A stretch of 64,000 bases of DNA, taken from the NCBI RefSeq assembly GCF_003019035.1, contig NZ_CP027447.1. One strand, written 5' to 3'. The translations under genes were made by a program, and so were the position numbers. Each line of letters begins with the position of its first letter. The first letter of the stretch is position 1. This DNA comes from Escherichia coli (GTDB lineage Bacteria; Pseudomonadota; Gammaproteobacteria; Enterobacterales; Enterobacteriaceae). Shown in pieces: positions 1-27,811 of this stretch. A model generated the notes under the pieces. It made no database searches. It saw only the letters and a program-made list of their open reading frames with translations, and was not told the origin of the DNA.

Positions 1-1
1 C

Positions 2-523: not shown

Positions 524-537
524 TGCCGGAGAGTGCA

Positions 538-1638: not shown

Positions 1639-1937
1639 TGAAAGTGAACGCCAGCGGCGGGATTGATGGCAGCGATGCGTTAATGGGGCCGAAGGTTCAG
1701 GCCAATGATATTAAGCAGGCCGCGGAGCAGTTTGAGGCGATTTTTTTACGCAACATGCTGAAAGAGATGCGTAAAACCAACGAGTTGTTCGATTCGAAAG
1801 ATAACCCATTTAACAGCGATTCGGTGCGCATGATGCAGGGGTTTTATGACGATGAGTTGTGTAACACCCTGGCGCAGCAGCACGGGATTGGGATTGCGGC
1901 GATGATTGTGAAGCAGTTGTCGCCGAAGGGGAAATGA
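1638..1937 (+). CDS. lfgJ: FlgJ-like rod-binding protein, short form without muramidase domain
   Basis: 99-aa ORF, GGAGGTGA RBS, start overlaps lfgI stop; FlgJ N-domain-like sequence. Confidence 0.7.
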   Translation: MKVNASGGIDGSDALMGPKVQANDIKQAAEQFEAIFLRNMLKEMRKTNELFDSKDNPFNSDSVRMMQGFYDDELCNTLAQQHGIGIAAMIVKQLSPKGK

Positions 1938-1948
1938 GGGGCGCGCTT

Positions 1949-2060
1949 TGCCCCTCACCCTAACCCTCTCCCCAAAGGGGCGAGGGGACCGATTGAGCGC
2001 GGAGGTGAATATGGCGCAGGTTTTCGCCCTCTCCCTGTGGGAGAGGGCCGGGGTGAGGGC
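1949..2060. repeat. GC-rich nested palindromic intergenic element
   Basis: cccctcaccctaaccctctcccc (1951-1973) is mirrored by ccctctccctgtgggagagggccggggtgaggg (2027-2059); perfect hairpin ccctctccc-tgt-gggagaggg; lies between lfgJ stop and lfgK start. Confidence 0.45.
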
Positions 2061-2142
2061 ATCAGCGCGCACCATTATCCACTTAAGAATCCCCATCTTC
2101 ACGCCGCTTTTAACCGGCACGATTTACCGGTAAGGATCCAAC

Positions 2143-3519: not shown

Positions 3520-3533
3520 GCGGGAGCGCGAAA

Positions 3534-4463: not shown

Positions 4464-4479
4464 CTCTTTCAGGAACCGT

Positions 4480-5457: not shown

Positions 5458-5547
5458 TGTTATTGAAAATCAATCAAATGAGGCTGTTGTAAAAAATCAT
5501 TTCAGTGCAGAATATGCTATAACTCTACGGGTTAAAAAAGGAATGAA

Positions 5548-5691
5548 ATGACCACTCTCAAGCAACTGATGGATAAGCAAAGCCCTGAAAGTCGTAGGCG
5601 AATAATAAAAAAAGCAGAACGAATCCGGCAAACTATCATTAATAAAAAGCTAGAGTTACCAATAACTAAAACTATCAGCAATTCCGATTGA
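5548..5691 (+). CDS. Possible small ORF (47 aa), hypothetical
   Basis: ATG at 5548 preceded by AAGGAA; reads MTTLKQLMDKQSPESRRRIIKKAERIRQTIINKKLELPITKTISNSD; below ORF-track size cutoff; AT-rich intergenic context. Confidence 0.2.
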   Translation: MTTLKQLMDKQSPESRRRIIKKAERIRQTIINKKLELPITKTISNSD

Positions 5692-5760
5692 TTTCATTCG
5701 GGATTTTCGTTGGCCGGATAAGACGCGTTTAGCGTCGCATCCGGCATATATTGGCACTCG

Positions 5761-6654
5761 TCAGCATTTCTGCACAGTATTTAACAACTTCTCTAAATTC
5801 TGATACATCGCGCGATTAATATCGCTGTTCTGCCAGCCTTCCACATTAAAAGTTAATTGCCAGCTACCATTGCACTGGTTGCGCAGAACAATATCACTTT
5901 CCAGTCGGTTACGAACATATTTATAATAAGTTGTCATTGTCATATTATGCGCTGACAATAAATTATCGAGTTTGTCTTTTCCTGGTTCGAGGGTTTGTGA
6001 CAGTAACGGTACGGAATTATTTTCCTTTCCAGAACTAAGATGAAATATTTTTATTCTTGGACTGTTAATTGACTCTTTTACCAGTTGCGGGGCGTCAGGT
6101 GTACTTTTCAAGTGTGAATACCCCACGGTCGAGCCAATAAATATAACAGCCGCGGTCAACGCTAACCCCATCAGTCCTTTATGTTTTTTTCTAACTGGTA
6201 CAGGCGGTGTTGTCGAAGATATCTCTTCTGACACAGTTTCCTGTACCTGGTCGGTAATCATCAGCTTTTCCGCAGGCGATAACTCCGGCAAAGACACATA
6301 CTCTTTATTGCACAAGTAACCTTTCTTCGGAATTGTTTTAATAATGTTCTGTTGTTTGCCATCATCGTCGATAGCAACGCGTAACGCATGGATCGCCGTC
6401 GGCAGGCTGTTACCGCCGACTATGCGGTTCTTCCATACTTCGGCACATAAATAAGATCGCGATAAAACCACATCGGCATTTTTTGCTAATGTTTCCAGCA
6501 AAATAAAATGGTATTCGCCGAGACGACGTGTTTCACCCGTTTCGCAATGTATTAAGGCATTAAGCGACGGGTCCATCCGCCAGTTGTTGATAATAATACT
6601 CATAGTTGAGTTTACCTTAGCAAGGGATAAATGTTTCCTGATAGTGCTTTGCAT
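5761..6654 (-). CDS. lafZ: Transmembrane transcriptional regulator (ToxR/CadC-like winged-helix N-domain plus one TM helix), LafZ position
   Basis: 297-aa ORF; OmpR/PhoB-type winged-helix-like N-terminus; hydrophobic segment LMGLALTAAVIFIGSTVGY mid-protein; AT-rich gene. Confidence 0.55.
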   Translation of the reverse strand: MQSTIRKHLSLAKVNSTMSIIINNWRMDPSLNALIHCETGETRRLGEYHFILLETLAKNADVVLSRSYLCAEVWKNRIVGGNSLPTAIHALRVAIDDDGKQQNIIKTIPKKGYLCNKEYVSLPELSPAEKLMITDQVQETVSEEISSTTPPVPVRKKHKGLMGLALTAAVIFIGSTVGYSHLKSTPDAPQLVKESINSPRIKIFHLSSGKENNSVPLLSQTLEPGKDKLDNLLSAHNMTMTTYYKYVRNRLESDIVLRNQCNGSWQLTFNVEGWQNSDINRAMYQNLEKLLNTVQKC

Positions 6655-7089
6655 AAAGCACAGTCTTATACGTCCCTGAGAAGATGATTTTTCTGCGTGA
6701 TAATTAATATTTTATGGTAATAGGATTATTCTTAATCACTATATGGCGTGGAAATGTAACGAAATGACAGGACAGGTACAATAGCCAAATGTGTACTATT
6801 TGCAACGCAATGTAAATTTTGGCATCAGTACATTGAGAACAAAACGCGATAATTGATGACAATCTTAACTATATCAAGCATTTGATAAAGACATATTTTG
6901 ATACCTGGCCATGTGGCAGATATTGCTAATAATCTTTTTATCTGAATTTAAACTCTGCTTTTTTTTAGCTAAAAGTGGCATCGGATAATACGTGGCGAAA
7001 AAATTTTAACGGCGATTTTAAGTTTGCTCCTGAGGTGTCGTTTTTACAGGGTATCGAAACGAAAACGATTAATCCCAAGGAGCAGTATC

Positions 7090-8004
7090 ATGTTATCTAT
7101 TAACACCAATAACGCCTCAATGGCCGCCGTTAATGCAATCAGCAAAAGCAGCTCTTCTCTGTCTACATCTATGGAACGCCTGGCAACGGGTAACCGGATT
7201 AACTCTTCTGCCGATGACGCAGCGGGCAAACAAATTGCTAACCGTCTGACAGCACAGTCCAGCGGTATGGGTGTGGCGCTGAGCAACATCAATGATGCCA
7301 CCGCGATGCTGCAAACCGCCGACAGCATGTTCGACGAAATGTCTGATGTGCTGGGTCGTATGAAAGACCTGTCAACTCAGGCAGCGAACGGCACCTACAG
7401 CGACGACGATCTACAGGCGATGCAGGACGAATACGACGAACTGGGTCAGCAGATGTCTGACATGCTGCAAAACACCACTTACGGCGGCACCAACCTGTTC
7501 GGTGTTTCCGGTACCAGCAACACCGGTACTGACGGTCTGTTCCAGAGCGCAGTAACTTTCCAGGTGGGCGCGGAATCTTCCGACACCATGACCGTGAATA
7601 TTTCAAGCCAGCTGAATACCCTGGTGACGGATCTTTCTGCTATCAGCAACTCCTTCAGTGCGGATCAGGCTGACACCACTGGCACCGCAGGCGTTTCTGG
7701 CGGTACTGAGCTGACTGCGTCTGGCTCGGCTAACCAGATGATTACCAGCATTTCGACCGCGATGGATGATGTTTCGCAGATCCAATCCAAGCTGGGTGCG
7801 TCTATTAACCGTCTGAACGACACTGCCAACAACCTGACCAGCATGCAGGACAACACCGAAGTCGCTATCGGTAACATTATGGATACCGACTACGCGACGG
7901 AAGCGTCCAACATGACTAAACAGCAGGTGCTGATGCAGACCGGCATCACCATGCTGAAACAGTCCAACAGCATGTCCAGCATGGTTTCCAGCCTGCTGCA
8001 GTAA
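7090..8004 (+). CDS. lafA: Lateral flagellin
   Basis: ORF-track 7024..8004; ATG at 7090 preceded by AAGGAG RBS; flagellin N-terminus MLSINTNNASMAAVNAI and C-terminus ...MSSMVSSLLQ. Confidence 0.85.
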   Translation: MLSINTNNASMAAVNAISKSSSSLSTSMERLATGNRINSSADDAAGKQIANRLTAQSSGMGVALSNINDATAMLQTADSMFDEMSDVLGRMKDLSTQAANGTYSDDDLQAMQDEYDELGQQMSDMLQNTTYGGTNLFGVSGTSNTGTDGLFQSAVTFQVGAESSDTMTVNISSQLNTLVTDLSAISNSFSADQADTTGTAGVSGGTELTASGSANQMITSISTAMDDVSQIQSKLGASINRLNDTANNLTSMQDNTEVAIGNIMDTDYATEASNMTKQQVLMQTGITMLKQSNSMSSMVSSLLQ

Positions 8005-8014
8005 TGGCGGACTT

Positions 8015-8045
<31 letters not shown>

Positions 8046-8052
8046 ACGAACA

Positions 8053-8080
8053 ACACCGCCTGCGGGCGGTGTTGTGCTTT
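8053..8080 (+). terminator. Rho-independent terminator after lafA
   Basis: acaccgcc-tgcg-ggcggtgt hairpin followed by T-rich tract (tgctttct). Confidence 0.5.
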
Positions 8081-8152
8081 CTGCGGCAGGCGTATTTCCG
8101 CCAGACCGGAAATGGCTTTTCCGCCTGTTTTTCAATCTATTGATTCTTCACA

Positions 8153-8183
8153 TAAAAAATATTGGCACGCCTTTTGCCAATAA
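8153..8183 (+). promoter_or_regulatory. Candidate sigma-28-type promoter upstream of lafB
   Basis: GCCAATAA (8176-8183) is one mismatch from the sigma-28 -10 consensus GCCGATAA; upstream TAAA at 8153 but spacing is longer than consensus. Confidence 0.25.
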
Positions 8184-8209
8184 CCTGACATCGTTATCCG
8201 GAGTCATCA

Positions 8210-9526
8210 ATGATCAACCCAAGAACCATTGCGCAAGAAATCGCCTATGCGGATGTTGCCACTCAGGCGGCAAACTTGCAGGAGAAGCAGAGCGAGCTGG
8301 ATGCTGAAAGCAGCGGCCTGGACTCGCTCAGCTCAGCGTTGAGCGATTTTCAGAGCGCCGTTGACGCGCTGAACAGCGATACTGACGGCCCGGTGACGTT
8401 TGCCGCCACCAGCAATAATGACTCGGCGACCGTTTCCGCTAACTCGCAGGCACAGGCGGGAAGCTACTCGTTTTTCGTTGAGCAACTGGCGCAGGGGCAG
8501 CAAACCACGTTCAGTATGGGCGACGACGCCTTTTCCGCCACCGGCACTTTTGAACTGACGATGGGCGACAGCACCATGGATATTGATCTGTCGGCGGCGG
8601 ATCAAAACGGTGACGGCGACGGTTTTATCGACGCCAGTGAACTGGTGAATGCGATTAACGACTCTGATGACAATCCGGGCGTGTCGGCGGCACTGGTAAA
8701 AACCGACGGCACCACCACCATTATGCTCACCTCCGATAGCACCGGGGCGCAGAGCGCATTTTCGGTGAGCGTAACGGGGCATGACACCAGCAACGATAGC
8801 GCCAGCGCGCCCGTTGCCACGGATGTTTCCTCCGCTCAGGACGCGATTATTCATCTCGGCAGTGCCACAGGGCCTGAGATCACCAACAGCAGCAATACGT
8901 TTGATGATGTGATCCCCGGTGTCACCATGACTTTCACCGAAGTCAGCGATTCTGACAGCGACCTCACTACCTTTAACATTAGCGAAGATTCCAGCGCCAG
9001 CCAGGAGAAAGTGCAGACCTTTGTCGATGCCTATAACACCCTGATCGATACGGTTGATTCGCTAACCACCCACGGTGATGACAGTACCAGCGCCGGGGTA
9101 TTTGCAGGCGACGCAGGACTCAGTTCACTGGCGAACCAGCTCGATGATATCGCCCATGCCAGCTACAACGGGGTATCGATTGTTGACTATGGCATCACGC
9201 TTGATTCTCACGGCCACTTACAGATTGACTCCGACCAGTTCAACGACGAAATGGCGAAAAATCCTGACGGTCTGACCTCTATTTTCGTTGGCGACAACAG
9301 CATGGTGGCACAGATGGACGACCTGATTAACACCTACACGGACTCCAGCAACGGCATCATCACCCTGCGCCAGCAGAACATTGACGATCAGATGAGCAAA
9401 ATTCAGGACGAAGGCGATCAGCTTACTGATACCTATAACGCCAACTACGACCGTTATCTCGAGGAGTACACCAACACGCTGGTCGAGGTGTACACCATGA
9501 AAGCCAGCATGGCGGCATTCGCGTAA
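8210..9526 (+). CDS. lafB: Flagellar filament cap protein FliD-like (lateral HAP2)
   Basis: 438-aa ORF; FliD-like N- and C-terminal regions; follows the flagellin gene. Confidence 0.8.
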   Translation: MINPRTIAQEIAYADVATQAANLQEKQSELDAESSGLDSLSSALSDFQSAVDALNSDTDGPVTFAATSNNDSATVSANSQAQAGSYSFFVEQLAQGQQTTFSMGDDAFSATGTFELTMGDSTMDIDLSAADQNGDGDGFIDASELVNAINDSDDNPGVSAALVKTDGTTTIMLTSDSTGAQSAFSVSVTGHDTSNDSASAPVATDVSSAQDAIIHLGSATGPEITNSSNTFDDVIPGVTMTFTEVSDSDSDLTTFNISEDSSASQEKVQTFVDAYNTLIDTVDSLTTHGDDSTSAGVFAGDAGLSSLANQLDDIAHASYNGVSIVDYGITLDSHGHLQIDSDQFNDEMAKNPDGLTSIFVGDNSMVAQMDDLINTYTDSSNGIITLRQQNIDDQMSKIQDEGDQLTDTYNANYDRYLEEYTNTLVEVYTMKASMAAFA

Positions 9527-9548
9527 CTCAGAAGGAATATCCCTAAAG

Positions 9549-9941
9549 ATGTACCAAGTACAGGACGGCTATTCGCAATATAAAGAGATCGATCTCGCGG
9601 CGCGTACTGCGGCGGCATCGCCTCTGGAACTGGTGCTGGTGCTGTTTTCTGGTCTGATGGACGAGCTGGAACGCGCCAAAAGCCATATTGAAGGGCGGCG
9701 TTTCGAGAAGAAAGCCCAGAGCATCAATAAATGCATCGACATTCTCAATGCGCTCACCAGTTCGCTGGAGTTTGAAACTGGCGGCGAGCTGGTGGTCAAC
9801 CTTTCGCGCCTCTATGACCACTGTGTGTATCGCTTGTATGAGGCTAGCGGCGAACTGTCGGCAGAGAAAATCGATGAAGTGATGCTGATCTTAAGCAACC
9901 TGCGTGAAGGCTGGGAAGGGCTTTCGGGCAAGCTGGGTTAA
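9549..9941 (+). CDS. lafC: Flagellar export chaperone FliS-like
   Basis: 130-aa ORF; FliS-like sequence; canonical position after fliD-like gene. Confidence 0.75.
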   Translation: MYQVQDGYSQYKEIDLAARTAAASPLELVLVLFSGLMDELERAKSHIEGRRFEKKAQSINKCIDILNALTSSLEFETGGELVVNLSRLYDHCVYRLYEASGELSAEKIDEVMLILSNLREGWEGLSGKLG

Positions 9942-9945
9942 GACG

Positions 9946-10257
9946 ATGGAAAAACAACGCAGGCAACTTTTCGCGCTGGTTGAAGCGATGAACGAAGCCC
10001 TCGACAAGCAACGCTGGCGACGCCTTCCGGCACTGCATCAGCAGTTGATGCGCCAGTTTCACGATTACGTGGCGGCGGAAACCGACGCGGCGCAGTTGTG
10101 TGCGGTGAAGGCGCAGCTGTACGGCGCGTTTAATGCCCTGATTAAACGGCGCGAGCAGCGTGCAGAAGTGTTGACGGCGCGTATGGAACAGCATCAGCGG
10201 CATCAGGAAGGCGTACTGGCCTACTCAATTGTTAATTTACTTTCGGAGAAGTCATGA
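9946..10257 (+). CDS. lafD: FliT-like chaperone / LafD
   Basis: ORF-track 9904..10257; ATG at 9946 follows lafC stop; small helical protein at FliT position. Confidence 0.45.
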   Translation: MEKQRRQLFALVEAMNEALDKQRWRRLPALHQQLMRQFHDYVAAETDAAQLCAVKAQLYGAFNALIKRREQRAEVLTARMEQHQRHQEGVLAYSIVNLLSEKS

Positions 10258-11312
10258 ATCCGGCATTGCTTGCCACGCTCGGAACACTTGCGGAAACGGC
10301 GTCGCTGAAAGCGGATATTTTACCGCCGGTGAGTAGTGAAAACGCGCCCGCGTTTACCCTGCCGAAAATGGCGGTCGCGGCGGTGGCGGAGCGCGTTCAT
10401 AGCGCAAAAACCAGTCAGCAACAGGCGACGCGCCCGCAGGAGAACGATCCGGTGGCGATGCAGGCGCTAATGGCGCTGTTACTTCCGCAACCTGCCGCGC
10501 CGCATCAGGTCACGCCGCAGCCGCGAAACGTCGCAACATCGCCGGTTATCCAGCAATTGACGAAAGCGGTGGTGCAAAACGCGCCGCAACGCCCGACGCA
10601 GCAGCAGGAATTCACGCCGTTGCCGCCGCAGTTGCAGGAGCTGATCAGTCAGTTGCCGCAGGCGAAACCCGAACAGCAGGCCAGACTGGCAATTTACGCC
10701 AGTGAAGATTTACATGCCATTGCGCCGACGCAGCCGCGCGTCTCAACACAGCCAGCTCGCCCGAAACCTGAACTAACCCGTGTGAACGCGCGCCCGCAGG
10801 TCGAGCGTAAAACGGAAAAAGTGCCGGACAGCGAACCGGTTATTGCGCGTGCGGTGTTGCAGGTTAAGACGCCGGATCTGGTCAGCGAACATCAGGAGAT
10901 TGTCGCCAAACCAGCCACGCTTTCGATGGACGAACTGGGCGAAAAACTGACGACGCTGTTGAAAGATCAGATCCACTTTCAGCTCAACAAACAACAGCAG
11001 ATCTCCACCATCCGTCTCGATCCACCGTCGCTTGGCAAGCTCGAGATCGCCGTACAACTCGACAACGGCAAACTGATGGTGCACATCGGCGCGAACCAAA
11101 GTGAAGTTTGCCGCGCGTTACAGCAGTTTAGCGACGATCTCCGCCAGCATCTGACGGCGCAAAATTTTATGGAGGTGAACGTACAGGTTTCCTCCGAAGG
11201 GCAGTCGCAGCAACAACAGTCGGGCCATCAGCAGGAAGAGGTGAGTGCCGCCTTACAGCTTGATGATGCGCCTCAATTTCAACAGAACGAATCCGTTTTG
11301 ATCAAAGTGTAA
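10254..11312 (+). CDS. lafE: Hook-length control protein FliK-like
   Basis: 352-aa ORF; Pro/Gln-rich low-complexity central region and conserved C-terminal domain typical of FliK. Confidence 0.6.
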   Translation: MNPALLATLGTLAETASLKADILPPVSSENAPAFTLPKMAVAAVAERVHSAKTSQQQATRPQENDPVAMQALMALLLPQPAAPHQVTPQPRNVATSPVIQQLTKAVVQNAPQRPTQQQEFTPLPPQLQELISQLPQAKPEQQARLAIYASEDLHAIAPTQPRVSTQPARPKPELTRVNARPQVERKTEKVPDSEPVIARAVLQVKTPDLVSEHQEIVAKPATLSMDELGEKLTTLLKDQIHFQLNKQQQISTIRLDPPSLGKLEIAVQLDNGKLMVHIGANQSEVCRALQQFSDDLRQHLTAQNFMEVNVQVSSEGQSQQQQSGHQQEEVSAALQLDDAPQFQQNESVLIKV

Positions 11313-11319
11313 AGGCAAT

Positions 11320-11787
11320 ATGAAGAAAATCGTGGTGGCGGGCGTGGTCAGCGCCGTTCTGGCGTTGGTGGTCGGCGCTGGAGCTGGATGGGGTGTCTGG
11401 CATCATTATGCCGGAAAAGGAAAACCGACTGCCGTTGCGCGGACGGAAGCGGTAGAAACCCTGGATGAAAGCAAAAGCGTGTTTGTGACGCTGCCGGAAA
11501 CCATTGTCACGCTGCATGACAACAACGGCGCGGACCATTATTTGTCGGCGGAATTAGTGATGGTGGTTGCCAGTGACAAAGAAGCGGAAAAAATAAAGCA
11601 TCAGGAGCCGTTGTATCAAAGTATTGCGGTTGAATGCCTGACGGAAATGAAATTTGAAGATTTGCGGGGCATGAAAATATCTGCCATCCGCAAACTGATT
11701 TCGGATGCGTTAAAGAAAGATCTTCAGCGTCGCAAAATGAGCGCACCGTATAAGGATTTGCTGGTGAAAAAAGTGGTCTTCCAGTAA
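11320..11787 (+). CDS. lafF: Flagellar basal-body-associated protein FliL-like
   Basis: 155-aa ORF with one N-terminal TM helix (IVVAGVVSAVLALVVGAGAGW); FliL-like topology. Confidence 0.6.
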   Translation: MKKIVVAGVVSAVLALVVGAGAGWGVWHHYAGKGKPTAVARTEAVETLDESKSVFVTLPETIVTLHDNNGADHYLSAELVMVVASDKEAEKIKHQEPLYQSIAVECLTEMKFEDLRGMKISAIRKLISDALKKDLQRRKMSAPYKDLLVKKVVFQ

Positions 11788-11806
11788 TCACCAGGCGGAT
11801 ATAAAC

Positions 11807-12526
11807 ATGCTACAGGACGTATTATTCGAGTCAGAAGAATTTGCTGCCGCGCCGGTATTAACCCCGCAGCAGGAGAGCCACTACTTGCAGGCCTATTTAC
11901 CACTGGTGCGTAAAGTGGTGCGGCAACTTGCCCCGCAGTGTAATTGCATTATTGATCGTCAGGATATGGAACAAACGGCGTTAATGGGGCTGCTTAATGC
12001 CATTCGCCGCTACGGGCTGCCGGACGAAGGTTTTGCGGGCTATGCCGTGCACCGTATTCGCGGCGCGATCCTGGATGAGCTGCGCGCTCTCGACTGGCGA
12101 CCGCGCCAGCTGCGACAGAAATATCATCAGATGAAAGACCTGATTCGCGAAACGCGTAAAAAACTGGGGCACGAACCGGAGTGGCAGGAGCTGGCTGAGG
12201 AAGGGATCTCGCATGAAGATTATCTCGAATATCAGCAACTGGAAGGGGCGGAAACGCTCGCCAGCCTGGACGAACTGCTGAACGGCGAAGGGCCAGGCAT
12301 TCCGCTTGCTGGCAGAGACCTGGAAGATCAGTTTGTCACGCAGAAAATGCTGCAACACGCGCTTTCACAATTAAGCGAAAAAGAGCAACTGATCCTCTCC
12401 ATGTATTACCAGCATGAGATGAATCTCAAAGAGATTGCGCTGGTATTAGGGCTAACCGAGGCCCGAATTTGTCAACTGAATAAACAGATCGCGCAGAAAA
12501 TTCGTGATTTTGTCTATCCGAATTAA
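11807..12526 (+). CDS. lafS: Flagellar sigma factor, sigma-28 (FliA-like)
   Basis: 239-aa ORF; sigma-70 family regions 2 and 4 recognisable; C-terminal HTH ...LKEIALVLGLTEARICQLNKQ. Confidence 0.85.
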   Translation: MLQDVLFESEEFAAAPVLTPQQESHYLQAYLPLVRKVVRQLAPQCNCIIDRQDMEQTALMGLLNAIRRYGLPDEGFAGYAVHRIRGAILDELRALDWRPRQLRQKYHQMKDLIRETRKKLGHEPEWQELAEEGISHEDYLEYQQLEGAETLASLDELLNGEGPGIPLAGRDLEDQFVTQKMLQHALSQLSEKEQLILSMYYQHEMNLKEIALVLGLTEARICQLNKQIAQKIRDFVYPN

Positions 12527-12538
12527 AGTGAAGAAATC

Positions 12539-13402
12539 ATGCAAAAAATATTAGGTTTACTGGTGGTGCTCGGCTGCGTATTTGGCGGTTATTTTGAAGC
12601 GGGCGGCCAATTAGTGGCTATCTGGCAGCCTGCAGAGATAGTTATTATTTTAGGTGCTGGTTTCGGGGCGATGATTATTGGGAACCCGAAACATGTGCTG
12701 AAAGAGATTGCCCATCAAATTAAAGGCGTGATCAGTAAAAAACAGCTCGGGCCGGAGTTTCAGCGCCAGCTATTAATGTGCCTGTATGAGTTGCTTGAAA
12801 TGGTACAAAACGGCGGTCTGCGGATGTTGGATCAGCATATTGAGCAGCCGGAAGAGAGTACCGTTTTCCAGAAATACCCGCTGGTGTTAACCCAGAAGCG
12901 GCTGGTGACTTTTATTGCCGATAACTTTCGCCTGATGGCGATGGGTAAAATCGACGCCCATGAACTGGAAGGCATTCTCGATCAGGAGCTGGACACCGCT
13001 GAAGAGTCGCTGTTAACGCCGTCACGCTCGCTGCAACGGACCGCCGAAGCGATGCCGGGATTTGGTATTTGCGCGGCAGTGCTGGGCATCATCATCACCA
13101 TGCAGTCAATTGACGGTTCTATCGCCCTGATTGGCCTGAAAGTGGCGGCAGCGCTGGTGGGGACATTTTTAGGCGTGTTTATTTGCTACTGCCTGATGGA
13201 CCCGCTCGCCAACGCCATGGAACAGCAGGCGCGGGCGGAACATTCGCTGCTGGAGTGTGTGCGTACCGTGCTGGTGGCCCAGGCGGGCGGCAAACCGACG
13301 CTGCTGGCGGTGGACGCCGGGCGTAAGCTGCTGCATCTGGCGTCCAAACCGACCTTCGCCAACCTCGATGCATGGGTGAATGCGATGCTGGAGCAAGAAT
13401 AA
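12539..13402 (+). CDS. lafT: Flagellar stator protein MotA-like
   Basis: 287-aa ORF; four TM segments and cytoplasmic loop typical of MotA/PomA. Confidence 0.85.
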   Translation: MQKILGLLVVLGCVFGGYFEAGGQLVAIWQPAEIVIILGAGFGAMIIGNPKHVLKEIAHQIKGVISKKQLGPEFQRQLLMCLYELLEMVQNGGLRMLDQHIEQPEESTVFQKYPLVLTQKRLVTFIADNFRLMAMGKIDAHELEGILDQELDTAEESLLTPSRSLQRTAEAMPGFGICAAVLGIIITMQSIDGSIALIGLKVAAALVGTFLGVFICYCLMDPLANAMEQQARAEHSLLECVRTVLVAQAGGKPTLLAVDAGRKLLHLASKPTFANLDAWVNAMLEQE

Positions 13403-13404
13403 GC

Positions 13405-14328
13405 ATGAGAAAGACGGGCAACCGCCGCGAGCGTGGGGCAAAAACCACCATCGTCCGGCGGCAGATCAAAAAGAATCATGCCGGGCACCACGGCGGGGCG
13501 TGGAAGGTAGCGTTCGCCGACTTTACCCTGGCGATGATGGCGCTATTTATGACGCTGTGGATTGTCAATAGCGTCAGTAAATCCGAGCGTGAAAGCATTA
13601 TCGCCGCGCTGCACGGGCAGTCGATTTTTAACGGTGGTGGGCTGTCGCCGTTAAATAAAATCAGCCCGTCTCATCCGTCAAAACCTGCCACCGTGGCGGT
13701 GCCGGAAGAGACGGAGAAAAAAGCGCGCGACGTCAACGAGAAAACGGCGCTGCTGAAGAAGAAATCCGCCACCGAGCTTGGTGAGCTGGCAACCAGCATC
13801 AACACCATTGCCCGTGATGCGCATATGGAAGCGAATCTGGAGATGGAGATTGTCCCGCAGGGATTACGCGTGCTGATTAAAGACGACCAGAATCGCAATA
13901 TGTTCGAACGCGGCAGCGCGCAGATTATGCCGTTCTTTAAAACGCTGCTGGTGGAGCTCGCGCCAGTGTTCGACTCGCTCGATAACAAAATTATTATTAC
14001 CGGGCATACCGATGCGATGGCCTACAAAAACAATATCTACAACAACTGGAACCTTTCGGGTGACCGCGCGCTTTCGGCTCGTCGGGTGCTGGAAGAGGCA
14101 GGAATGCCGGAAGATAAAGTGATGCAGGTGAGCGCAATGGCGGACCAGATGCTGCTGGACGCGAAAAATCCGCAAAGCGCGGGCAACCGGCGCATTGAGA
14201 TTATGGTGCTGACTAAAAGCGCGTCCGATACGCTGTATCAATACTTTGGTCAGCATGGGGATAAAGTGGTGCAGCCGCTGGTGCAAAAGCTGGATAAGCA
14301 GCAGGTGCTTTCGCAGCGAACGCGTTAA
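13405..14328 (+). CDS. lafU: Flagellar stator protein MotB-like (OmpA-family peptidoglycan-binding C-domain)
   Basis: ORF-track 13372..14328; ATG at 13405; single TM (FADFTLAMMALFMTLWIV); C-terminal OmpA-like motif (TGHTDAMAY...NWNLSGDRALSARRVL). Confidence 0.85.
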   Translation: MRKTGNRRERGAKTTIVRRQIKKNHAGHHGGAWKVAFADFTLAMMALFMTLWIVNSVSKSERESIIAALHGQSIFNGGGLSPLNKISPSHPSKPATVAVPEETEKKARDVNEKTALLKKKSATELGELATSINTIARDAHMEANLEMEIVPQGLRVLIKDDQNRNMFERGSAQIMPFFKTLLVELAPVFDSLDNKIIITGHTDAMAYKNNIYNNWNLSGDRALSARRVLEEAGMPEDKVMQVSAMADQMLLDAKNPQSAGNRRIEIMVLTKSASDTLYQYFGQHGDKVVQPLVQKLDKQQVLSQRTR

Positions 14329-14398: not shown

Positions 14399-15454
14399 AT
14401 GCGTAAAATCATTCATGTGGATATGGACTGCTTTTTCGCAGCGGTGGAGATGCGCGACAATCCTGCCCTGCGCGATATCCCTATTGCTATTGGCGGCAGC
14501 CGCGAACGTCGGGGGGTGATCAGCACCGCCAATTATCCCGCGCGTAAATTTGGCGTACGTAGCGCTATGCCGACAGGGATGGCACTCAAATTATGCCCAC
14601 ATCTCACGCTGCTTCCAGGGCGCTTTGACGCCTACAAAGAAGCCTCAAATCATATCCGCGAAATTTTCTCGCGCTATACCTCGCGCATTGAACCGTTATC
14701 ACTGGATGAAGCCTATCTCGACGTCACCGATAGTGTGCATTGCCACGGTTCTGCGACCCTCATCGCCAAGGAAATCCGTCAGACGATCTTTAACGAGCTG
14801 CAACTGACGGCATCTGCGGGCGTTGCGCCGGTAAAGTTTCTCGCCAAAATTGCTTCCGACATGAATAAACCCAACGGTCAGTTTGTGATTACGCCGGCAG
14901 AAGTTCCGGCATTTCTGCAAACCTTACCGCTGGCAAAAATTCCCGGCGTCGGCAAAGTCTCGGCGGCAAAACTGGAAGCGATGGGGCTGCGGACCTGCGG
15001 TGATGTGCAAAAGTGTGATCTGGTGACTCTGCTCAAACGTTTTGGCAAATTTGGCCGCATTTTGTGGGAGCGTAGTCAGGGGATTGACGAGCGCGACGTT
15101 AACAGTGAACGGTTGCGAAAATCCGTCGGCGTGGAACGCACGATGGCGGAAGATATTCATCACTGGTCTGAATGTGAAGCGATTATCGAGCGGCTGTATC
15201 CTGAACTTGAACGCCGTCTGGCAAAGGTAAAACCTGATTTACTGATTGCTCGCCAGGGGGTGAAATTAAAGTTTGATGATTTTCAGCAAACCACTCAGGA
15301 GCACGTCTGGCCGCGGCTGAATAAAGCTGATCTAATCGCCACCGCGCGTAAAACCTGGGATGAACGTCGCGGCGGGCGCGGTGTGCGTCTGGTGGGGCTG
15401 CATGTGACGTTACTTGACCCTCAAATGGAAAGACAACTGGTGCTGGGATTATGA
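14399..15454 (+). CDS. dinB: DNA polymerase IV
   Basis: 351-aa ORF matching E. coli DinB essentially along its length ([20 protein letters not shown]...). Confidence 0.95.
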
Positions 15455-15903
15455 ATAACATACAAATAAGAAACTATCAGCCTTGCGATTTTCAGCAACT
15501 ATGCGCTATTTTCATTAGAGCAGTTACGATGACCGCCAGTCAGCACTATTCTCCACAGCAAATTGCCGCCTGGGCGCAGATTGACGAATCTCGCTGGAAA
15601 GATAAACTCGCGAAATCACAAGTGCGGGTTGCAGTCATTAATGCACAACCGGTTGGTTTTATTTCCCGCATTGAACATTATATCGATATGTTATTTGTTG
15701 ACCCGGAATACACCCGCCGTGGGGTTGCCAGCGCTTTGTTAAAACCTTTGATTAAGTCTGAATCCGAACTTACGGTGGACGCCAGCATAACCGCAAAGCC
15801 CTTTTTTGAACGTTATGGTTTTCAGACAGTTAAGCAGCAGCGCGTTGAATGCCGGGGAGCGTGGTTTATTAATTTTTATATGCGTTATAAACCGCAACAT
15901 TAA
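15451..15903 (+). CDS. yafP: GNAT-family N-acetyltransferase YafP
   Basis: 150-aa ORF; start overlaps dinB stop (ATGA); GNAT-like sequence. Confidence 0.8.
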
Positions 15904-16081
15904 ATCCAGCTTGCAATGAAAATAACGCCCGCCTAGTATGTGTGCGTTTTCTTATTCCACAAACTGCAAGGAGGTAAATCATGACAAATCCTTTATCAAT
16001 GACTCTTTGCAGACCTTTCCAGGATTAATTCTTTTTTTCTTGCCCTGGATTCGTCTGCCATTTCCTGATTTTTATTCATAA

Positions 16082-17233
16082 ATGGAATGGTACATGGGCA
16101 AATATATTCGTCCCTTATCCGATGCGGTATTTACCATCGCATCTGATGACCTGTGGATCGAGAGTTTAGCGATCCAACAATTACACACCACGGCAAATTT
16201 ACCCAACATGCAACGCGTAGTAGGGATGCCAGATTTACATCCCGGACGCGGCTATCCGATTGGCGCAGCGTTCTTCTCCGTAGGCCGTTTTTACCCGGCA
16301 CTGGTCGGCAATGATATCGGCTGCGGTATGGCGCTATGGCAAACAGATATTTTCGCGCGCAAATACAACGCCGATAAGTTTGAAAAGCGATTATCTGCGC
16401 TGGATGACGTTGCTGAAGAAAGCTGGCTGGAGGAAAACCTGCCGTCAGCGTTAGCACAGCATCCGTGGCGCAGCTCGCTGGGTTCCATCGGTGGCGGAAA
16501 CCACTTCGCAGAACTGCAACAAGTTGATCAAATTATCGACGCTGAACTGTTTGCACTGACAGGTCTGGATGCGCAGCATCTGCAACTGCTGGTTCATAGC
16601 GGCTCGAGGGGGCTGGGGCAGTCTATTTTACAGCGGCATATTGCCTCGTTTTCGCATCATGGTTTGCCTGAAGGCAGTGACGACGCGCTACGGTATATTG
16701 CGGAACATGACGATGCGCTGGCGTTTGCGCGTATTAATCGCCAGATGATCGCTTTGCGCATAATGCAACAGGTTAAGGCCACCGGAAGTCCTGTTCTGGA
16801 TGTGGCGCATAACTTTGTTAGCGCCTGTCAAATCGGCGATCAACAGGGCTGGTTGCATCGTAAAGGTGCCACGCCGGATGACAACGGTCTGGTGATTATT
16901 CCCGGTTCACGCGGTGATTACTCCTGGCTGGTTAAACCTGTTGCGAACGAAAAAACACTCCACTCGCTGGCGCATGGGGCAGGGCGTAAATGGGGGCGCA
17001 CCGAGTGTAAAGGGCGTCTGGCAGCGAAATACACGGCGACGCAACTCTCGCGTACTGAACTTGGCAGTCGGGTAATTTGTCGCGATAAACAACTCATCTT
17101 TGAAGAAGCGCCACAAGCCTATAAATCGGCTGAAAGCGTGGTGCAATGTCTGGTGCAGGCCGGTTTAATTATTCCTGTCGCGCGGCTGCGTCCGGTGCTA
17201 ACGCTCAAAAACAATGGAGGGAAAAAAGGATGA
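16082..17233 (+). CDS. RtcB-family RNA ligase (PrfH-associated paralogue)
   Basis: 383-aa ORF; RtcB-like metal-binding motifs (GNDIGCG, GGGNHF); stop overlaps prfH start (ATGA). Confidence 0.8.
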
Positions 17234-17844
17234 TCTTGCTACAACTCTCCTCAGCTCAGGGGCCGGAAGAATGTTGCCTGGCAGTGAAAAAGGCGCTGGA
17301 CAGGTTGATTAAAGAAGCTACCCGACAAGACGTCGCGGTAACGGTGCTGGAAACAGAAACGGGTCGCTACTCTGACACACTGCGTTCGGCGCTGATTTCT
17401 CTGGATGGCGATAACGCATGGGCTCTAAGCGAAAGCTGGTGTGGCACTATCCAGTGGATTTGTCCGAGTCCGTATCGGCCTCATCATGGGCGCAAAAACT
17501 GGTTTCTGGGCATTGGGCGTTTTACCGCTGATGAGCAGGAACAATCCGACGCGATCCGTTATGAGACGCTGCGTTCGTCGGGGCCGGGCGGTCAACATGT
17601 CAATAAAACCGACTCGGCGGTACGCGCCACGCATCTGGCATCCGGTATTAGCGTGAAGGTTCAGTCAGAGCGCAGTCAGCATGCTAACAAACGGCTGGCG
17701 CGATTACTGATTGCCTGGAAGCTGGAACAACAGCAACAGGAAAATAGCGCGGCGCTGAAATCGCAGCGGCGAATGTTCCATCATCAAATTGAACGTGGCA
17801 ATCCGCGACGGATATTTACCGGGATGGCTTTTGTTGCTGTGTAA
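17230..17844 (+). CDS. prfH: Peptide chain release factor homologue PrfH
   Basis: ORF-track 17146..17844; in-frame ATG at 17230; contains GGQ motif ([17 protein letters not shown]) of class-I release factors. Confidence 0.85.
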
Positions 17845-17905
17845 TTGAGGAATGTCTCCCGCCGTTTTCTATATGAAAGCGGCGGGCAAAACGAAAGGAA
17901 TCGTC

Positions 17906-18415
17906 ATGTTTATCGGTCATCTTCCGGCTGGTTATTTAATAACTTGTACTTTAGTGAAACGCTTGCCACTGATTGCTCGTCATGCGCGCTGGGCGATGGT
18001 TATTGGCTTAGTTGGGGCCATTGCGCCCGATTTTGATCTTTTCTGGTGCTATCTGGTTGATAACGGGCAACGCCATCATCATCTTTACCCGTCTCATTGG
18101 CCATTATTATGGTTTGCTCTGCTGGCGGCGACATTAGTTTGGGCCGCAATTGCGAAGAATAAACTTCCGGCGTGGTTGGGCGTGGTGTTTTGCCTGAATG
18201 GTATCGTGCATTTATTACTCGATACGCTGGTCGGTGATATCTGGTGGTTGATGCCTTTCGTTAACCAACCCTTTGCACTCTTTCATATTACGGCGGTACA
18301 TCATCCGTGGTGGCTCAATTTTTTATTACACTGGTCGTTTTTACTTGAACTGGCATTAGTGGTTGCCGCCATTGCCATGTGGTACAGGCGTAATGCCAAA
18401 ATGGTAAATGCATGA
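17906..18415 (+). CDS. Membrane-bound metal-dependent hydrolase-like inner-membrane protein
   Basis: ORF-track 17852..18415; ATG at 17906 with AAAGGAA RBS; multiple TM helices, His-rich (HLPAGY, HHHLYPSHW). Confidence 0.5.
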   Translation: MFIGHLPAGYLITCTLVKRLPLIARHARWAMVIGLVGAIAPDFDLFWCYLVDNGQRHHHLYPSHWPLLWFALLAATLVWAAIAKNKLPAWLGVVFCLNGIVHLLLDTLVGDIWWLMPFVNQPFALFHITAVHHPWWLNFLLHWSFLLELALVVAAIAMWYRRNAKMVNA

Positions 18416-18689
18416 AAAAATAATTCTGACTTTAAGCGGCGTAACATGTTTCCTGGGGAAATTCTCCCGTGGCTAAGTATGTTTTCCTGACTTTGCCCCA
18501 GGCTCTGAACATATAAAAATTCTGCTTTTCACCCTTAAGTTCTTTCACGGATTCCAGCGCAAAACTTTCTTTGGTGATCAGAAACTCCCCCCATGAAATA
18601 TGGTCGCAGCTATATAAATATGCGACCTTTTCATGAGTTTCATAATGTTTTGTTATTTCGATATAGATAGCCATTGGCTTCAAACAGAA

Positions 18690-18711
18690 GTCCACGCCCG
18701 CAGGCGTGGAC
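18690..18711 (-). terminator. Terminator hairpin downstream of pepD
   Basis: Perfect 9-bp inverted repeat gtccacgcc-cgca-ggcgtggac, 10 nt past pepD stop; T-rich on the minus strand afterwards. Confidence 0.45.
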
Positions 18712-18721
18712 ATTATCGTAA

Positions 18722-26557: not shown

Positions 26558-26633
26558 GCCGATATAGCTCAGTTGGTAGAGCAGCGCATTCGTAATGCGA
26601 AGGTCGTAGGTTCGACTCCTATTATCGGCACCA
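26558..26633 (+). tRNA. thrW: tRNA-Thr (CGT anticodon)
   Basis: 76-nt sequence GCCGATATAGCTCAGTTGGTAGAGCAGCGCATTCGTAATGCGAAGGTCGTAGGTTCGACTCCTATTATCGGCACCA with cloverleaf pairing and CCA end; downstream of proA. Confidence 0.9.
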
Positions 26634-26647
26634 TTAAAATCAATAAG

Positions 26648-27811
26648 TTACACATCATTAGTACCTTCCTTATTTTTTGACTGGGACAAATTTGGGACCG
26701 ATGGGTTCAGGATCGAGTCTATTTGCCGTGCGTGTTCGGTAAGGTGATTAGGTGCAAGGTGAGCATATCGACGAACCATTTCGATAGACTCCCAGCCTCC
26801 CATTTCCTGTAACACTGACAACGGGACTCCGGCTTGAACCAGCCAACTTGCCCAGGTGTGTCTCAAGTCGTGAAATCTGAAATCATCAATACCAGCCCGT
26901 CTCAGCGCCGCTTTCCAGGCTGTGTTTGCGTCATACCGCATCTTCCTTACTGTTGGCGCTTTCGTTCCGTCTGGTTTGGTACAGCTTTCCTTGTACACAA
27001 ATACCCAACGGTGATGATTCCCGATTTGTTTTTTCAATACGCGACATGCAGTATCATTCAGCGCAACGCCAATTGCGCGGTTTGATTTACTCTCTTCCGG
27101 GTTTATCCATGCCACCCGGCGCTGCATATCTATTTGTTGCCATTCAAGGTTGATGATGTTCGAGCGTCTTAAGCCTGTTGCCAGTGCAAATTCAACAACA
27201 GACTTTAATGGCTCCGGACATTCATCAATCAGCCTTTGTGCTTCATGGGGTTCCAGCCAGCGGATCCGTTTATTCTTTGGTTGAGGCACTTTAATAATTG
27301 GTGCCTTATCCAGCATTTTCCATTCACGCTCTGCGGCTCTTAGTAGGGCCTTTATAAATGAAAGATGCGTAGCCTTCGTTGCAACGGACGCTGGTTTTGG
27401 CGTGTATTCTGGAACAGGTTTCCCTTTTTTTCTGCATGCTTCTGCCCTGAGTTTCCAGTTTTCCTCATGACGCCGGTTCGTCATTTTCTGCATTGCTGAA
27501 TAAATTTTTGATTCAGTAATGTCTCTTAGTTGCATTCCTGCGAAATGTTGAAGCCAGAATCCGATCCGGCTTTTGTCATCGTCCAGTGATTTTTTATGTG
27601 CTTTCTCTTCAAGCCACCTGACACACGCTTCCTCGAACGTTATATCAGGTATTTCACCAAGTTTGCTGACCCGCCATGCTTCGGCCTTTAGCTTGTCATG
27701 GAGTTCTGTCGCCTGCCTTTTGTCCTTTGTTCCAAGAGACTGTTTAAATCTTTTACCGTTCGGCAATGTGAAACTGGCGTACCATATTTCACCTCTGCGG
27801 AAGAGTGACAT
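26648..27811 (-). CDS. int: Tyrosine integrase (P22-like)
   Basis: 387-aa ORF closely resembling P22 Int from memory ([41 protein letters not shown]...); C-terminal catalytic motifs HDLRHTWAS and VRRYAHL. Confidence 0.9.

Follow-up and report, generated by a model that had tools for sequence, protein, structure and literature searches.

An intact rtcB2–prfH operon in Escherichia coli and a candidate stall-responsive leader upstream of it

Does this Escherichia coli chromosome retain a working copy of the RNA ligase and release factor H gene pair that is disrupted in strain K-12, and what might control its expression? Both genes were identified on the + strand of the window (the whole 64,000-nt stretch of DNA that was analysed), the frames being examined together with the residues on which function would depend, the state of the operon in other E. 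coli genomes, and the leader that precedes it.

Identity and surroundings of the gene pair

The longest ligase ORF (16082..17233, +) comprises 383 codons and the prfH ORF (17230..17844, +) 204 codons counted from the ATG at 17230; neither is interrupted. The prfH ATG (17230–17232) overlaps the ligase TGA (17231–17233) in an ATGA tetranucleotide (17230..17233, +) indicative of translational coupling, with GGAGG situated 9 nt 5' of the prfH ATG. The same 4-nt overlap occurs in E. coli ATCC 25922, Salmonella, Phytobacter, Kosakonia, Cronobacter, Limnobaculum, and P. aeruginosa. The original prediction had described two complete, ATGA-coupled frames, and both ORFs are present on the + strand as it placed them. 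The ligase matches Pfam RtcB (PF01139; E = 1.2e-74) and the NCBIfam models NF007153 (641.8 bits; cut-off 407) and TIGR03073 ‘release_rtcB’ (622.5 bits; cut-off 271.8), and the prfH product matches Pfam RF-1 (E = 1.2e-24) and TIGR03072 ‘release_prfH’ (330.5 bits; cut-off 166.65). Because these Pfam and NCBIfam scores lie well over the cut-offs, the ORFs are not chance occurrences.

The true ligase start is probably the ATG at 16094 rather than that at 16082, since the RefSeq start for identical DNA is 16094, the NCBIfam model alignment begins at residue 5, and ATGGGCA is kept as the ligase start in 19/19 leaders compared; in Citrobacter, Pseudomonas sp. YH-1, Providencia, and the leader L032, the upstream ATG is missing or does not share the frame. 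With this start, rtcB2 (16094..17233, +) encodes a 379-aa RNA 3'-phosphate/5'-OH ligase of the release-factor-H-coupled subfamily, and prfH encodes a 204-aa release factor H (TIGR03072), a GGQ peptidyl-tRNA hydrolase predicted to recognise the cleaved decoding centre.

A YdjM-family hydrolase gene lies 62 nt 3' of prfH without an intervening hairpin. It was rejected as a third component of the system: the K. aerogenes orthologue is located between yafP and pepD without rtcB2–prfH, a Halopseudomonas homologue likewise lacks such neighbours, and the gene is present in 325 of 5426 E. coli genomes vs. 2709 for the operon. A 93-aa ORF (18432–18713) gave no family match. SOS control was also rejected, as a LexA-box-like site occurs nearby only at the known position upstream of dinB (14367) and not in the rtcB2 leader; a perfect CTGT-N8-ACAG at 16547 lies in coding sequence and is within chance expectation. 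PADLOC defence models gave no match, and the one Rfam match, to STnc350 on the opposite strand, was below threshold.

The closest known system is RtcB2–PrfH of E. coli ATCC 25922 (Tian et al., 2022, PMC9304027; Maviza et al., 2022, PMC9223846; Maviza et al., 2026, PMC13166195; PDB 7SA4). The two strains share the chromosomal site (dinB-yafP-rtcB2-prfH-pepD), the ATGA overlap, and the absence of yafN-yafO, but differ downstream of prfH, where the YdjM-family hydrolase gene stands here and a hairpin followed by pepD stands in ATCC 25922. The ATCC 25922 record is rearranged relative to K-12.

Residue conservation, function, and loss of the operon

The RtcB metal-binding motifs and the PrfH GGQ motif on which the original prediction relied are confirmed. 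The ligase contains NDIGCG, GGGNHF, VHSGSRG, VAHNF, and AHGAGR, and its residues D74, C77, N136, H137, H168, H239, and H294 (numbered from 16094) align with D95, C98, N202, H203, H234, H329, and H404 of P. horikoshii RtcB, so that every metal-binding and GMP-histidine residue is retained. Mutation of H294 disables EcRtcB2 (PMC9304027). The GGQ motif of PrfH is G120-G121-Q122. PrfH is without RF domain 1, aligning over its 204 aa only to RF2 residues about 115–300, and it retains A9, Q10–P12, R52, S53, R83, H85, H86, R88, K89, N90, Q122, R181, H184, and R189, to which roles in contacting the cleaved A1493 phosphate, h18/S12, C1914, and C1054 have been assigned (PMC9304027).

All of these catalytic and contact residues are identical in ATCC 25922. 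Overall, RtcB2 is identical to its ATCC 25922 counterpart at 369/379 positions (97%); one of the 10 substitutions, A139 for V, sits two residues from the metal ligand H137. PrfH is identical to PDB 7SA4 chain 8 (ATCC 25922) at 199/202 positions (99%), the differences (K20R, I195T, and V202I) falling outside the residues named in PMC9304027. Five PrfH substitutions are counted overall when the last two residues are included, the C-terminus being FVAV here vs. FIEG in ATCC 25922 because of a downstream 886-bp indel. The alignment revealed no inactivating substitution at any catalytic or rRNA-contact residue of either protein, the kind of change that the original prediction had named as speaking against it. 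Codon differences from ATCC 25922 are mostly synonymous (32 synonymous vs. 10 non-synonymous in rtcB2; 18 vs. 5 in prfH), and the upstream intergenic region is identical at 187/190 positions.

The proposed link of the gene pair to rescue and repair of nuclease-damaged ribosomes has been demonstrated experimentally for the 97% and 99% identical proteins (PMC9304027, PMC9223846, PMC13166195): RtcB2 and PrfH of ATCC 25922 rescue and re-ligate ribosomes cut at 16S A1493/G1494 (PMC9304027), the system has been characterised by biochemistry and cryo-EM (PMC9304027, PMC13166195), and the chromosomal operon protects against colicin E3, so the colicin E3 challenge proposed in the original prediction has already been done in ATCC 25922 (PMC9223846). 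For the present proteins, we infer the mechanism from this 97–99% identity. A colicin E3-type or CdiA-CT ribotoxin would cut 16S rRNA between A1493 and G1494, stalling the 70S ribosome; PrfH would enter the A site, read the cleaved 3'-terminal A1493 phosphate via its N-terminal rRNA-recognition domain, and hydrolyse peptidyl-tRNA with its GGQ motif, allowing the subunits to separate; and RtcB2, using GTP and Mn2+ and a histidine-GMP intermediate, would then join the 2',3'-cyclic-phosphate/3'-phosphate end to the 5'-OH in the 30S subunit. PrfH would be expected to release peptide on damaged rather than intact 70S ribosomes, as the 99% identical E. coli-type PrfH is active only on damaged ribosomes (PMC9304027). 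The more distant CgPrfH of Capnocytophaga gingivalis (PDB 9MOR/9MQ4; E = 1.2e-39) also belongs to the PrfH family and has GGQ and rRNA-recognition domains, but is longer (231 aa vs. 204 aa for the E. coli type found here) and also rescues intact non-stop ribosomes (PMC12829566).

The substrate of RtcB2 is likewise expected to be the 16S cut at A1493/G1494 in the 30S subunit, not cleaved tRNAs. E. coli also encodes RtcB1, with the RNA cyclase RtcA, in rtcBA; RtcB1 has the same ligase fold and chemistry (PF01139, with metal and GMP-histidine motifs) but is only about 28% identical to RtcB2, its partner is RtcA and not PrfH, and it repairs tRNAs but not the E3-type 16S cut (PMC9304027). That RtcB1 acts on tRNAs, and that ArmZ, the orthologue in P. 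aeruginosa, uses its C-terminal helix to bind the repressor MexZ, could suggest that the present ligase is mainly an ArmZ-like anti-repressor or acts on some RNA other than 16S. We consider this very improbable: the 97% identical EcRtcB2 repaired damaged 30S subunits but not colicin E5- or D-cleaved tRNAs, with no protection against those toxins (PMC9304027, PMC9223846), the C-terminal tail of the P. aeruginosa protein is different, and the operon here has no linked mexZ-mexXY system. The anti-repressor role that ArmZ has acquired towards MexZ has no counterpart in the window.

In K-12, ykfJ and prfH are annotated as pseudogenes, and comparison with NC_000913.3 (blastn and junction sequences) shows that 1027 bp (16301..17327) are missing, in agreement with the statement in the original prediction that the K-12 pair is disrupted. 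The deleted stretch is bounded by the repeats TACCCGGCA and TACCCGACA, of the form TACCCG(G/A)CA, and takes RtcB codons 74–383 and the first ~33 codons of PrfH. The same deletion of ~1 kb has already been described (PMC1586002, PMC9304027). An intact operon is present in 2709/5426 complete E. coli genomes; carried by about half of them, it is not peculiar to the present strain. As the RtcB2–PrfH system is already known, one more intact copy is an ordinary finding. The role of the module in defence against the ribosome-cutting toxins of competitors has been established since 2022.

Deletions in the operon, of at least three size classes (46%, 37%, and 19% coverage), are found in about half of the complete E. 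coli genomes, and prfH is split in Intestinirhabdus, which suggests that selection is often relaxed; moreover, a consensus scan detected no strong promoter before the operon. The present genes might therefore be intact but silent or non-protective, en route to the same decay. This is improbable, given that both frames are complete, that the differences from ATCC 25922 are mostly synonymous, and that the leader and promoter region matches the ATCC 25922 sequence at 187/190 positions, the chromosomal copy in that strain being protective. The family scores, the 97–99% identity to tested proteins, the predominance of synonymous differences, and the near-identical leader instead indicate that the locus is very probably a functional copy of the RtcB2–PrfH ribosome rescue-and-repair operon. 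The suggestion that a functional module may persist here is thus upheld, on complete frames, unchanged catalytic and contact residues, and identity to tested proteins.

A conserved leader peptide upstream of rtcB2

The leader of rtcB2 spans 190 nt (15904–16093). Near its 5' end lies a promoter-like site, TTGCAA-N17-TAGTAT (15911..15939, +); the -35 block (CTTGCAAT) and the -10 block (TA(N)TAT) recur at constant spacing in Escherichia, Klebsiella, Phytobacter, and Citrobacter. The site emerged only from this cross-genus comparison, lying below the threshold (9/12) of the consensus promoter scan, which returned no site in the leader. The leader also contains a small upstream ORF (uORF; 15981..16028, +) of 15 codons and a TAA stop, encoding the peptide MTNPLSMTLCRPFQD, 113 nt from the gene; the uORF is without annotation in four RefSeq records.

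Conservation of the uORF was assessed in the Enterobacterales and Pseudomonas genomes sampled and in metagenome contigs. It is 13–15 codons long; the N-terminal half varies and the LCR/CUUUGCAG core is conserved, the codons CUU UGC AGR being the most conserved and invariant at synonymous positions too. In all enterobacterial, Providencia, Limnobaculum, and Pseudomonas leaders, GCAA(A)GGAGG stands 6 nt 5' of the uORF ATG. The uORF, its Shine–Dalgarno (SD) sequence, and the downstream segments 2–4 (see below) are conserved from Escherichia to Pseudomonas, with intermediate forms in other genera, and move with the operon into other genomic contexts. Among metagenome matches to the leader pattern, an RtcB2 gene follows in 12/120.

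By sequence, the E. coli uORF and the P. aeruginosa leader peptide PA5471.1 are homologous. The P. aeruginosa operon, PA5471.1–armZ (PA5471)–PA5470 (prfH), contains orthologues of both genes, again overlapping by ATGA, and the two leaders share the SD context GCAAAGGAGG, the LCR/CUUUGCAGG core, and GGUCUGCC; the P. aeruginosa GGAUUGG before AUGGGCA is also common to both. The leader peptide identified in P. aeruginosa (L149; MIQFSTLCRLRLA), 254 nt upstream of armZ, agrees in sequence and position with the published description of PA5471.1 (13 aa, Q3, F4, about 250 bp upstream). The leaders differ in dimensions (13 codons and 254 nt from the gene in P. aeruginosa vs. 15 codons and 113 nt here) and in the intervening terminator region: roughly 140 nt carrying the P. 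aeruginosa terminators are missing from the enterobacterial leader, and with them the published segment 3:4 terminator feature. The mode of control (translational vs. transcriptional) may therefore differ. The original papers (Morita et al., 2006, J Bacteriol 188:1847; Morita et al., 2009, J Bacteriol 191:4966) aside, no description of the leader in E. coli was found in the literature.

Alternative pairings in the leader and a model for control

Ribosome stalling on the PA5471.1 leader induces armZ-PA5470 in P. aeruginosa, and by analogy the expression of the present operon would be under a stall-sensing leader of the PA5471.1 type. Four segments with alternative pairing potential, all on the + strand, are consistent with such control. 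Segment 1 (CUGCAAGGAG; 15964..15974) contains the uORF SD AAGGAGG (15968–74); segment 2 (CUCUUUGCAGAC...CCAGG; 16003..16023) lies in uORF codons 8–15 and can pair with segment 1 or 3; segment 3 (CCUGG..GUCUGC), together with 3' (CCAUUUCC), occupies 16044..16065, segment 3 being able to pair with segment 2, and 3' with segment 4; and segment 4 (GGAAUGG; 16084..16090) is the weak ribosome-binding region immediately before the ligase start.

Complementarity and covariation were counted on an alignment of 13 leaders (A1). For segments 1:2, 87.5% of cells are paired. For GCAGAC:GUCUGC the figure is 100%, with A-U replaced by G-C in Limnobaculum and the leader L046, G-U intermediates in Klebsiella, and GCGGGC:GCCCGC as the Providencia counterpart. 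Segments 3':4 are paired in 92% of cells, and U-A is exchanged for A-U when the Escherichia type is compared with the Klebsiella/Cronobacter type. Across the helices, 90–94% of cells are paired vs. 17–49% when slid, but each helix has only one compensatory pair and shuffle controls on the 13 leaders are not significant; the whole-leader fold gives z = -1.65 only. In the predicted minimum-energy fold of the free leader, the 3':4 hairpin covers the rtcB2 ribosome-binding site and also the AUG at 16094. Masking the uORF start flips the predicted fold between the 1:2 and 2:3 pairings and raises the predicted accessibility of the rtcB2 start here by a modest amount, roughly doubling it (0.23 to 0.44), with a change in the same direction in 16/19 leaders.

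These features suggest a model in which damage induces its own repair operon. In the resting mRNA, segment 1 would pair with segment 2 and 3' with segment 4, so that the ribosome-binding site of rtcB2 is hidden; once a ribosome stalls at the uORF start or close to it, segment 1 would be occupied, segment 2 would pair with segment 3 instead, and the rtcB2 start would become free. E3-cleaved ribosomes pile up at start codons in toeprints (PMC13166195), and such ribosomes, stalled at the uORF start, could thus unmask the rtcB2 ribosome-binding site in what would be a translational variant of the PA5471.1 attenuator. We put this model forward tentatively, as a plausible reading to which we give somewhat less than even weight.

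Alternatively, the uORF region could be a structured RNA or small protein gene unrelated to rtcB2 control, or could work by P. aeruginosa-style transcription termination. The fixation of CUU UGC AGR at synonymous positions points to RNA-level constraint, the P. aeruginosa model is one of transcriptional attenuation, and a U-rich tract lies 3' of segment 3; nevertheless, this U-tract begins 8–10 nt past the stem, no U-run follows the 3':4 hairpin, and a scan of 15904–16093 detected no terminator-like site. Moreover, the uORF is always directly 5' of rtcB2 across differing genomic contexts, its frame and length are kept even though its N-terminal half varies freely, and segment 4 overlaps the rtcB2 ribosome-binding region. 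On balance, we regard an unrelated or terminating element as unlikely, while allowing it appreciable weight.

Stall-responsive unmasking of rtcB2 would have a functional analogue in translational attenuation of the ermC type, to which the present leader has no sequence relationship. Leaders of that type combine a short leader ORF with four segments that adopt 1:2/3:4 or 2:3 pairings; the regulated gene has its ribosome-binding site in segment 4, and a stalled ribosome is the trigger. Unlike in the ermC type, segment 1 here is the SD region of the leader ORF itself, and the trigger, a drug-dependent arrest peptide in the former, is presumed here to be any early stall, ribosome damage included.

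If the uORF acts like its Pseudomonas homologue, it would explain the regulation of the E. coli repair operon, a subject not addressed in the literature examined, and both colicin E3 and ribosome-stalling drugs would be predicted to induce the operon. It would also point to a ribosome-damage response as the evolutionary origin of the antibiotic-inducible ArmZ pathway in P. aeruginosa. The damage-induction model, if correct, would mean that ribosome-targeting antibiotics induce the operon in Enterobacteriaceae; it would also link the literatures on ArmZ/MexXY induction and on RtcB2–PrfH repair, which do not cross-cite under those names. According to a second-hand report, ykfJ of E. coli K-12 is inducible by 4-azaleucine.

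An intact rtcB2–prfH pair and its characterised counterpart

Downstream of dinB (14399–15454) and yafP (15451–15903), the window encodes an RtcB-family RNA ligase (rtcB2; ORF 16082–17233) and release factor H (prfH; ATG at 17230, end at 17844); within 15.4–20.2 kb these are followed by a YdjM-family hydrolase gene, a 93-codon ORF on the opposite strand, and pepD. Neither reading frame is interrupted, and the prfH ATG (17230–17232), with GGAGG 9 nt 5' of it, overlaps the ligase TGA (17231–17233). Both proteins score far above the cut-offs of specific Pfam and NCBIfam families (ligase: 622.5 bits against TIGR03073 "release_rtcB," cut-off 271.8, and 641.8 bits against NF007153, cut-off 407; PrfH: 330.5 bits against TIGR03072 "release_prfH," cut-off 166.65). 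With uninterrupted frames, an ATGA overlap, and such scores, the translationally coupled pair of complete genes proposed in the original prediction is borne out. Its coordinates (16082–17844) hold for the ORFs but probably not for the ligase start, which is more likely the ATG at 16094, 190 nt from the end of yafP. RefSeq starts the ligase at 16094 on identical DNA, the family model alignment begins at residue 5, and ATGGGCA is conserved as the start in 19 of 19 compared leaders, and several genera lack the upstream ATG or have it in another frame. The GC content of the operon genes (52.5% and 54%) is ordinary for the window (51.7%). Two database proteins, P0123 (522 residues) and P0161 (583 residues), carry both RtcB and RF-1 Pfam domains; these apparent RtcB2–PrfH fusions could be genuine, or could reflect a frameshift or assembly error at the ATGA overlap.

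Identity was assessed against the CHARACTERISED system of E. coli ATCC 25922 (PDB 7SA4), the locus of which was reached by following its RefSeq record. RtcB2 is identical at 369 of 379 residues and PrfH at 199 of 202, with substitutions at positions 20, 195, and 202 (n = 3); synonymous vs. non-synonymous codon differences number 32 vs. 10 in rtcB2 and 18 vs. 5 in prfH. PrfH likewise matches chain 8 of PDB 7SA4, the cryo-EM structure of the near-identical ATCC 25922 PrfH on a damaged ribosome, at 199 of 202 residues. RtcB2 residues D74, C77, N136, H137, H168, H239, and H294 (numbered from 16094) correspond in a HMMER alignment to D95, C98, N202, H203, H234, H329, and H404 of Pyrococcus horikoshii RtcB, and mutation of the histidine matching H294 disables the ATCC 25922 enzyme (PMC9304027). 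All PrfH contacts to the cleaved A1493 phosphate, h18/S12, C1914, and C1054, as named in PMC9304027, are present, as is Q122 of GGQ; the metal-binding and GGQ motifs originally noticed are both found.

ColE3-type toxins and CdiA-CT(ECL) cut 16S rRNA between A1493 and G1494; PrfH releases peptides only from damaged 70S ribosomes with this cut, and RtcB2 re-ligates the cut in 30S subunits but not cleaved tRNAs, the opposite of RtcB1 (PMC9304027). The RtcB2–PrfH pair reverses toxin growth arrest, an effect lost in GGQ or catalytic-histidine mutants (PMC9304027). Loss of chromosomal rtcB2–prfH sensitises ATCC 25922 to colicin E3, and BW25113, derived from K-12, lacks protection in either case (PMC9223846). 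Repair of 30S subunits and of 70S ribosomes is possible with RtcB2 by itself, and PrfH speeds it up for translating ribosomes (PMC13166195). The predicted link to rescue and repair of nuclease-damaged ribosomes is already published (PMC9304027; PMC9223846; PMC13166195). Because of their identity to the characterised proteins, the window genes should act like the ATCC 25922 pair; the earlier interpretation as a whole is supported, and no change was found at aligned catalytic and rRNA-contact residues.

K-12 disruption, distribution, and surroundings

In K-12, ykfJ and prfH are annotated as pseudogenes, and disruption of the pair there was described earlier (Baranov et al., 2006). Alignment with K-12 agrees with the disruption stated in the original prediction: K-12 lacks 1027 bp (window 16301–17327), a length not divisible by three, flanked by TACCCGGCA and TACCCGACA repeats, and the window copy is intact. 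The deletion removes RtcB codons 74–383, including all active-site motifs, and the first ~33 PrfH codons. At least 80% of a 2-kb operon-spanning query is present in 2709 of 5426 complete E. coli genomes, which makes an intact operon common; the others fall into deletion classes with ~46%, ~37%, or ~19% query coverage. The operon DNA is identical in strain FDAARGOS_497, and EC476 has the same protein accessions. Earlier publications cover the two genes, what they do, how they are disrupted in K-12, and their occurrence in other E. coli strains, and the window system is an ordinary, well-characterised one that is common in the species.

The order dinB–(yafP)–rtcB2–prfH–pepD is kept in Salmonella, Phytobacter, Kosakonia, Cronobacter, and Intestinirhabdus, and the pair lies at other sites in Limnobaculum, Providencia, and Pseudomonas. 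Searches for a LexA box, an Rfam family, or a PADLOC model bearing on the operon found none. An 886-bp segment (17833–18718) that K-12 and ATCC 25922 lack, and that only 325 of the 5426 complete E. coli genomes carry, holds the YdjM-family membrane hydrolase gene (17906–18415) and the unassignable 93-codon ORF (18432–18713, minus strand); it changes the PrfH end from FIEG to FVAV and replaces a hairpin found 3' of prfH in other strains. The hydrolase was rejected as a third component, given that its Klebsiella aerogenes orthologue occupies the same site without rtcB2–prfH and that it occurs in only 6% of E. coli genomes.

The yafN–yafO toxin–antitoxin pair is absent from the window, in which dinB runs directly into yafP through an ATGA stop–start overlap (15448–15454); this junction is identical in ATCC 25922, and yafNO (~752 bp) occupies it in K-12, FDAARGOS_497, and EC476. 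The lateral-flagella (Flag-2) cluster (1–14328) is apparently intact, with full-length motA-like (12539–13402) and lafU (13372–14328) genes; K-12, FDAARGOS_497, and ATCC 25922 have only lfhA/lafU remnants. A prophage (within 26558–64000; integrase ORF 26648–27811, minus strand) is integrated beside tRNA-Thr(CGT) (26558–26633), where EC476 has a different element; at 44–60 kb it is 97–98% identical to the Shigella serotype-converting myoviruses SfII, SfI, and SfIV and E. coli phage vB_EcoM-689R6. The deposited ATCC 25922 chromosome (NZ_CP009072.1) is not collinear with K-12, being inverted from tRNA-Asp (aspV, next to dnaQ) to the cobUST/pks-island region, which places dinB–prfH at 4.93 Mb in reverse orientation; the inversion is either real or an assembly artefact.

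A leader ORF related to PA5471.1

The yafP–rtcB2 gap (15904–16093), identical to that of ATCC 25922 at 187 of 190 positions, contains a 15-codon uORF (15981–16028, MTNPLSMTLCRPFQD) preceded by AAGGAGG. Among the compared loci (from a genome scan, contigs with diverse RtcB2 proteins, and a metagenome pattern scan), a uORF of 13–15 codons with a freely variable N-terminal half always lies directly 5' of rtcB2. Its Shine–Dalgarno (SD) context GCAA(A)GGAGG and CUUUGCAG(R)C core (coding L-C-R) are kept, as are blocks 3' of the uORF: CCUGG, GUCUGCC, and GGA(A/U)UGG immediately before AUGGGCA. A predicted promoter-like site, TTGCAA-N17-TA(N)TAT, is conserved in Enterobacteriaceae. A loose leader pattern matched 120 metagenome sites, of which 12 precede an RtcB2 gene; some of these genes are only 52–64% identical to that of the window.

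In Pseudomonas aeruginosa, the orthologous operon comprises PA5471 (armZ, "RtcB-like RNA ligase," ykfJ homologue) and PA5470 (prfH) behind a 13-residue leader peptide, PA5471.1; according to the P. aeruginosa literature, the operon is induced when ribosomes stall on PA5471.1, be it because of drugs that target the ribosome, mutations in suhB or cca, or an early amber codon. The P. aeruginosa locus examined has MIQFSTLCRLRLA 254 nt 5' of armZ, with Q3 and F4 matching the published peptide, and shares with the window the SD context, the CUUUGCAGG core, GGUCUGCC, and AUGGAUUGG before AUGGGCA. The shared context, core, and downstream blocks identify the uORF as the enterobacterial homologue of PA5471.1. 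A search of the accessible literature returned no paper that joins RtcB2 with a leader peptide or ArmZ, or gives the uORF peptide, with an earlier Pseudomonas mention possible; the E. coli RtcB2–PrfH literature examined does not cover regulation of the operon. The uORF is unannotated in the RefSeq records examined and unmentioned in that E. coli literature. The leader is at most a new instance of the PA5471.1 type.

Predicted pairing switch in the leader

The complement of segment 1 (15964–15973, with the uORF SD) lies in segment 2 (16003–16012), whose GCAGAC and CCAGG can alternatively pair with segment 3 (CCUGG, GUCUGC; 16044–16058); segment 3' (16058–16065) is complementary to segment 4 (16084–16090), immediately 5' of the rtcB2 start. 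Across 13 leaders, cells are paired at 94% for 2:3 and 90% for 1:2 and 3':4, against 17–49% with slid partners, the helices consisting mostly of invariant positions with one compensatory pair each and non-significant shuffle controls. The Providencia leader pairs GCGGGC:GCCCGC. ViennaRNA folds the free leader with 1:2 and 3':4 formed, and forms 2:3 instead when positions -15 to +15 around the uORF AUG are masked as a stalled-ribosome mimic; the rtcB2 start region then has a mean unpaired probability of 0.44 in the window, up from 0.23, and 16 of 19 leaders likewise show a rise. No such rise was obtained in folds with the ribosome at the uORF stop.

In free mRNA, 1:2 and 3':4 pairing would thus mask the rtcB2 ribosome-binding site; a ribosome stalled at the uORF start would let 2:3 pair and make the rtcB2 start region more accessible. 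Control could instead act through transcription termination, for which the P. aeruginosa leader carries terminators in ~140 nt. Since this region is absent from the enterobacterial leader and no terminator-like site was detected in that of the window, we tentatively favour ribosome-binding-site masking. E3-cleaved ribosomes pile up at start codons (Maviza et al., 2026, PMC13166195), the stall position that masking control requires. We hold tentatively, and with somewhat more doubt than belief, the testable idea that in E. coli the repair operon is induced, through a PA5471.1-type leader, by the very ribosomes that are damaged or stalled.

An Intestinirhabdus alba-like contig has a decaying operon (prfH split into 144- and 61-residue ORFs, yafP a fragment) and ~190 nt inserted between the uORF and segment 3. 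K-12 keeps the uORF. The loop between segments 3' and 4 is an insertion spot in several genera: ERIC-like insertions of 50–130 bp occur there in K-12, two cryptic Escherichia lineages, and K. spallanzanii (loci L002, L014, L016, and L019), that of K-12 being a 129-bp element (L002, 5335–5463) which we take to be ERIC.
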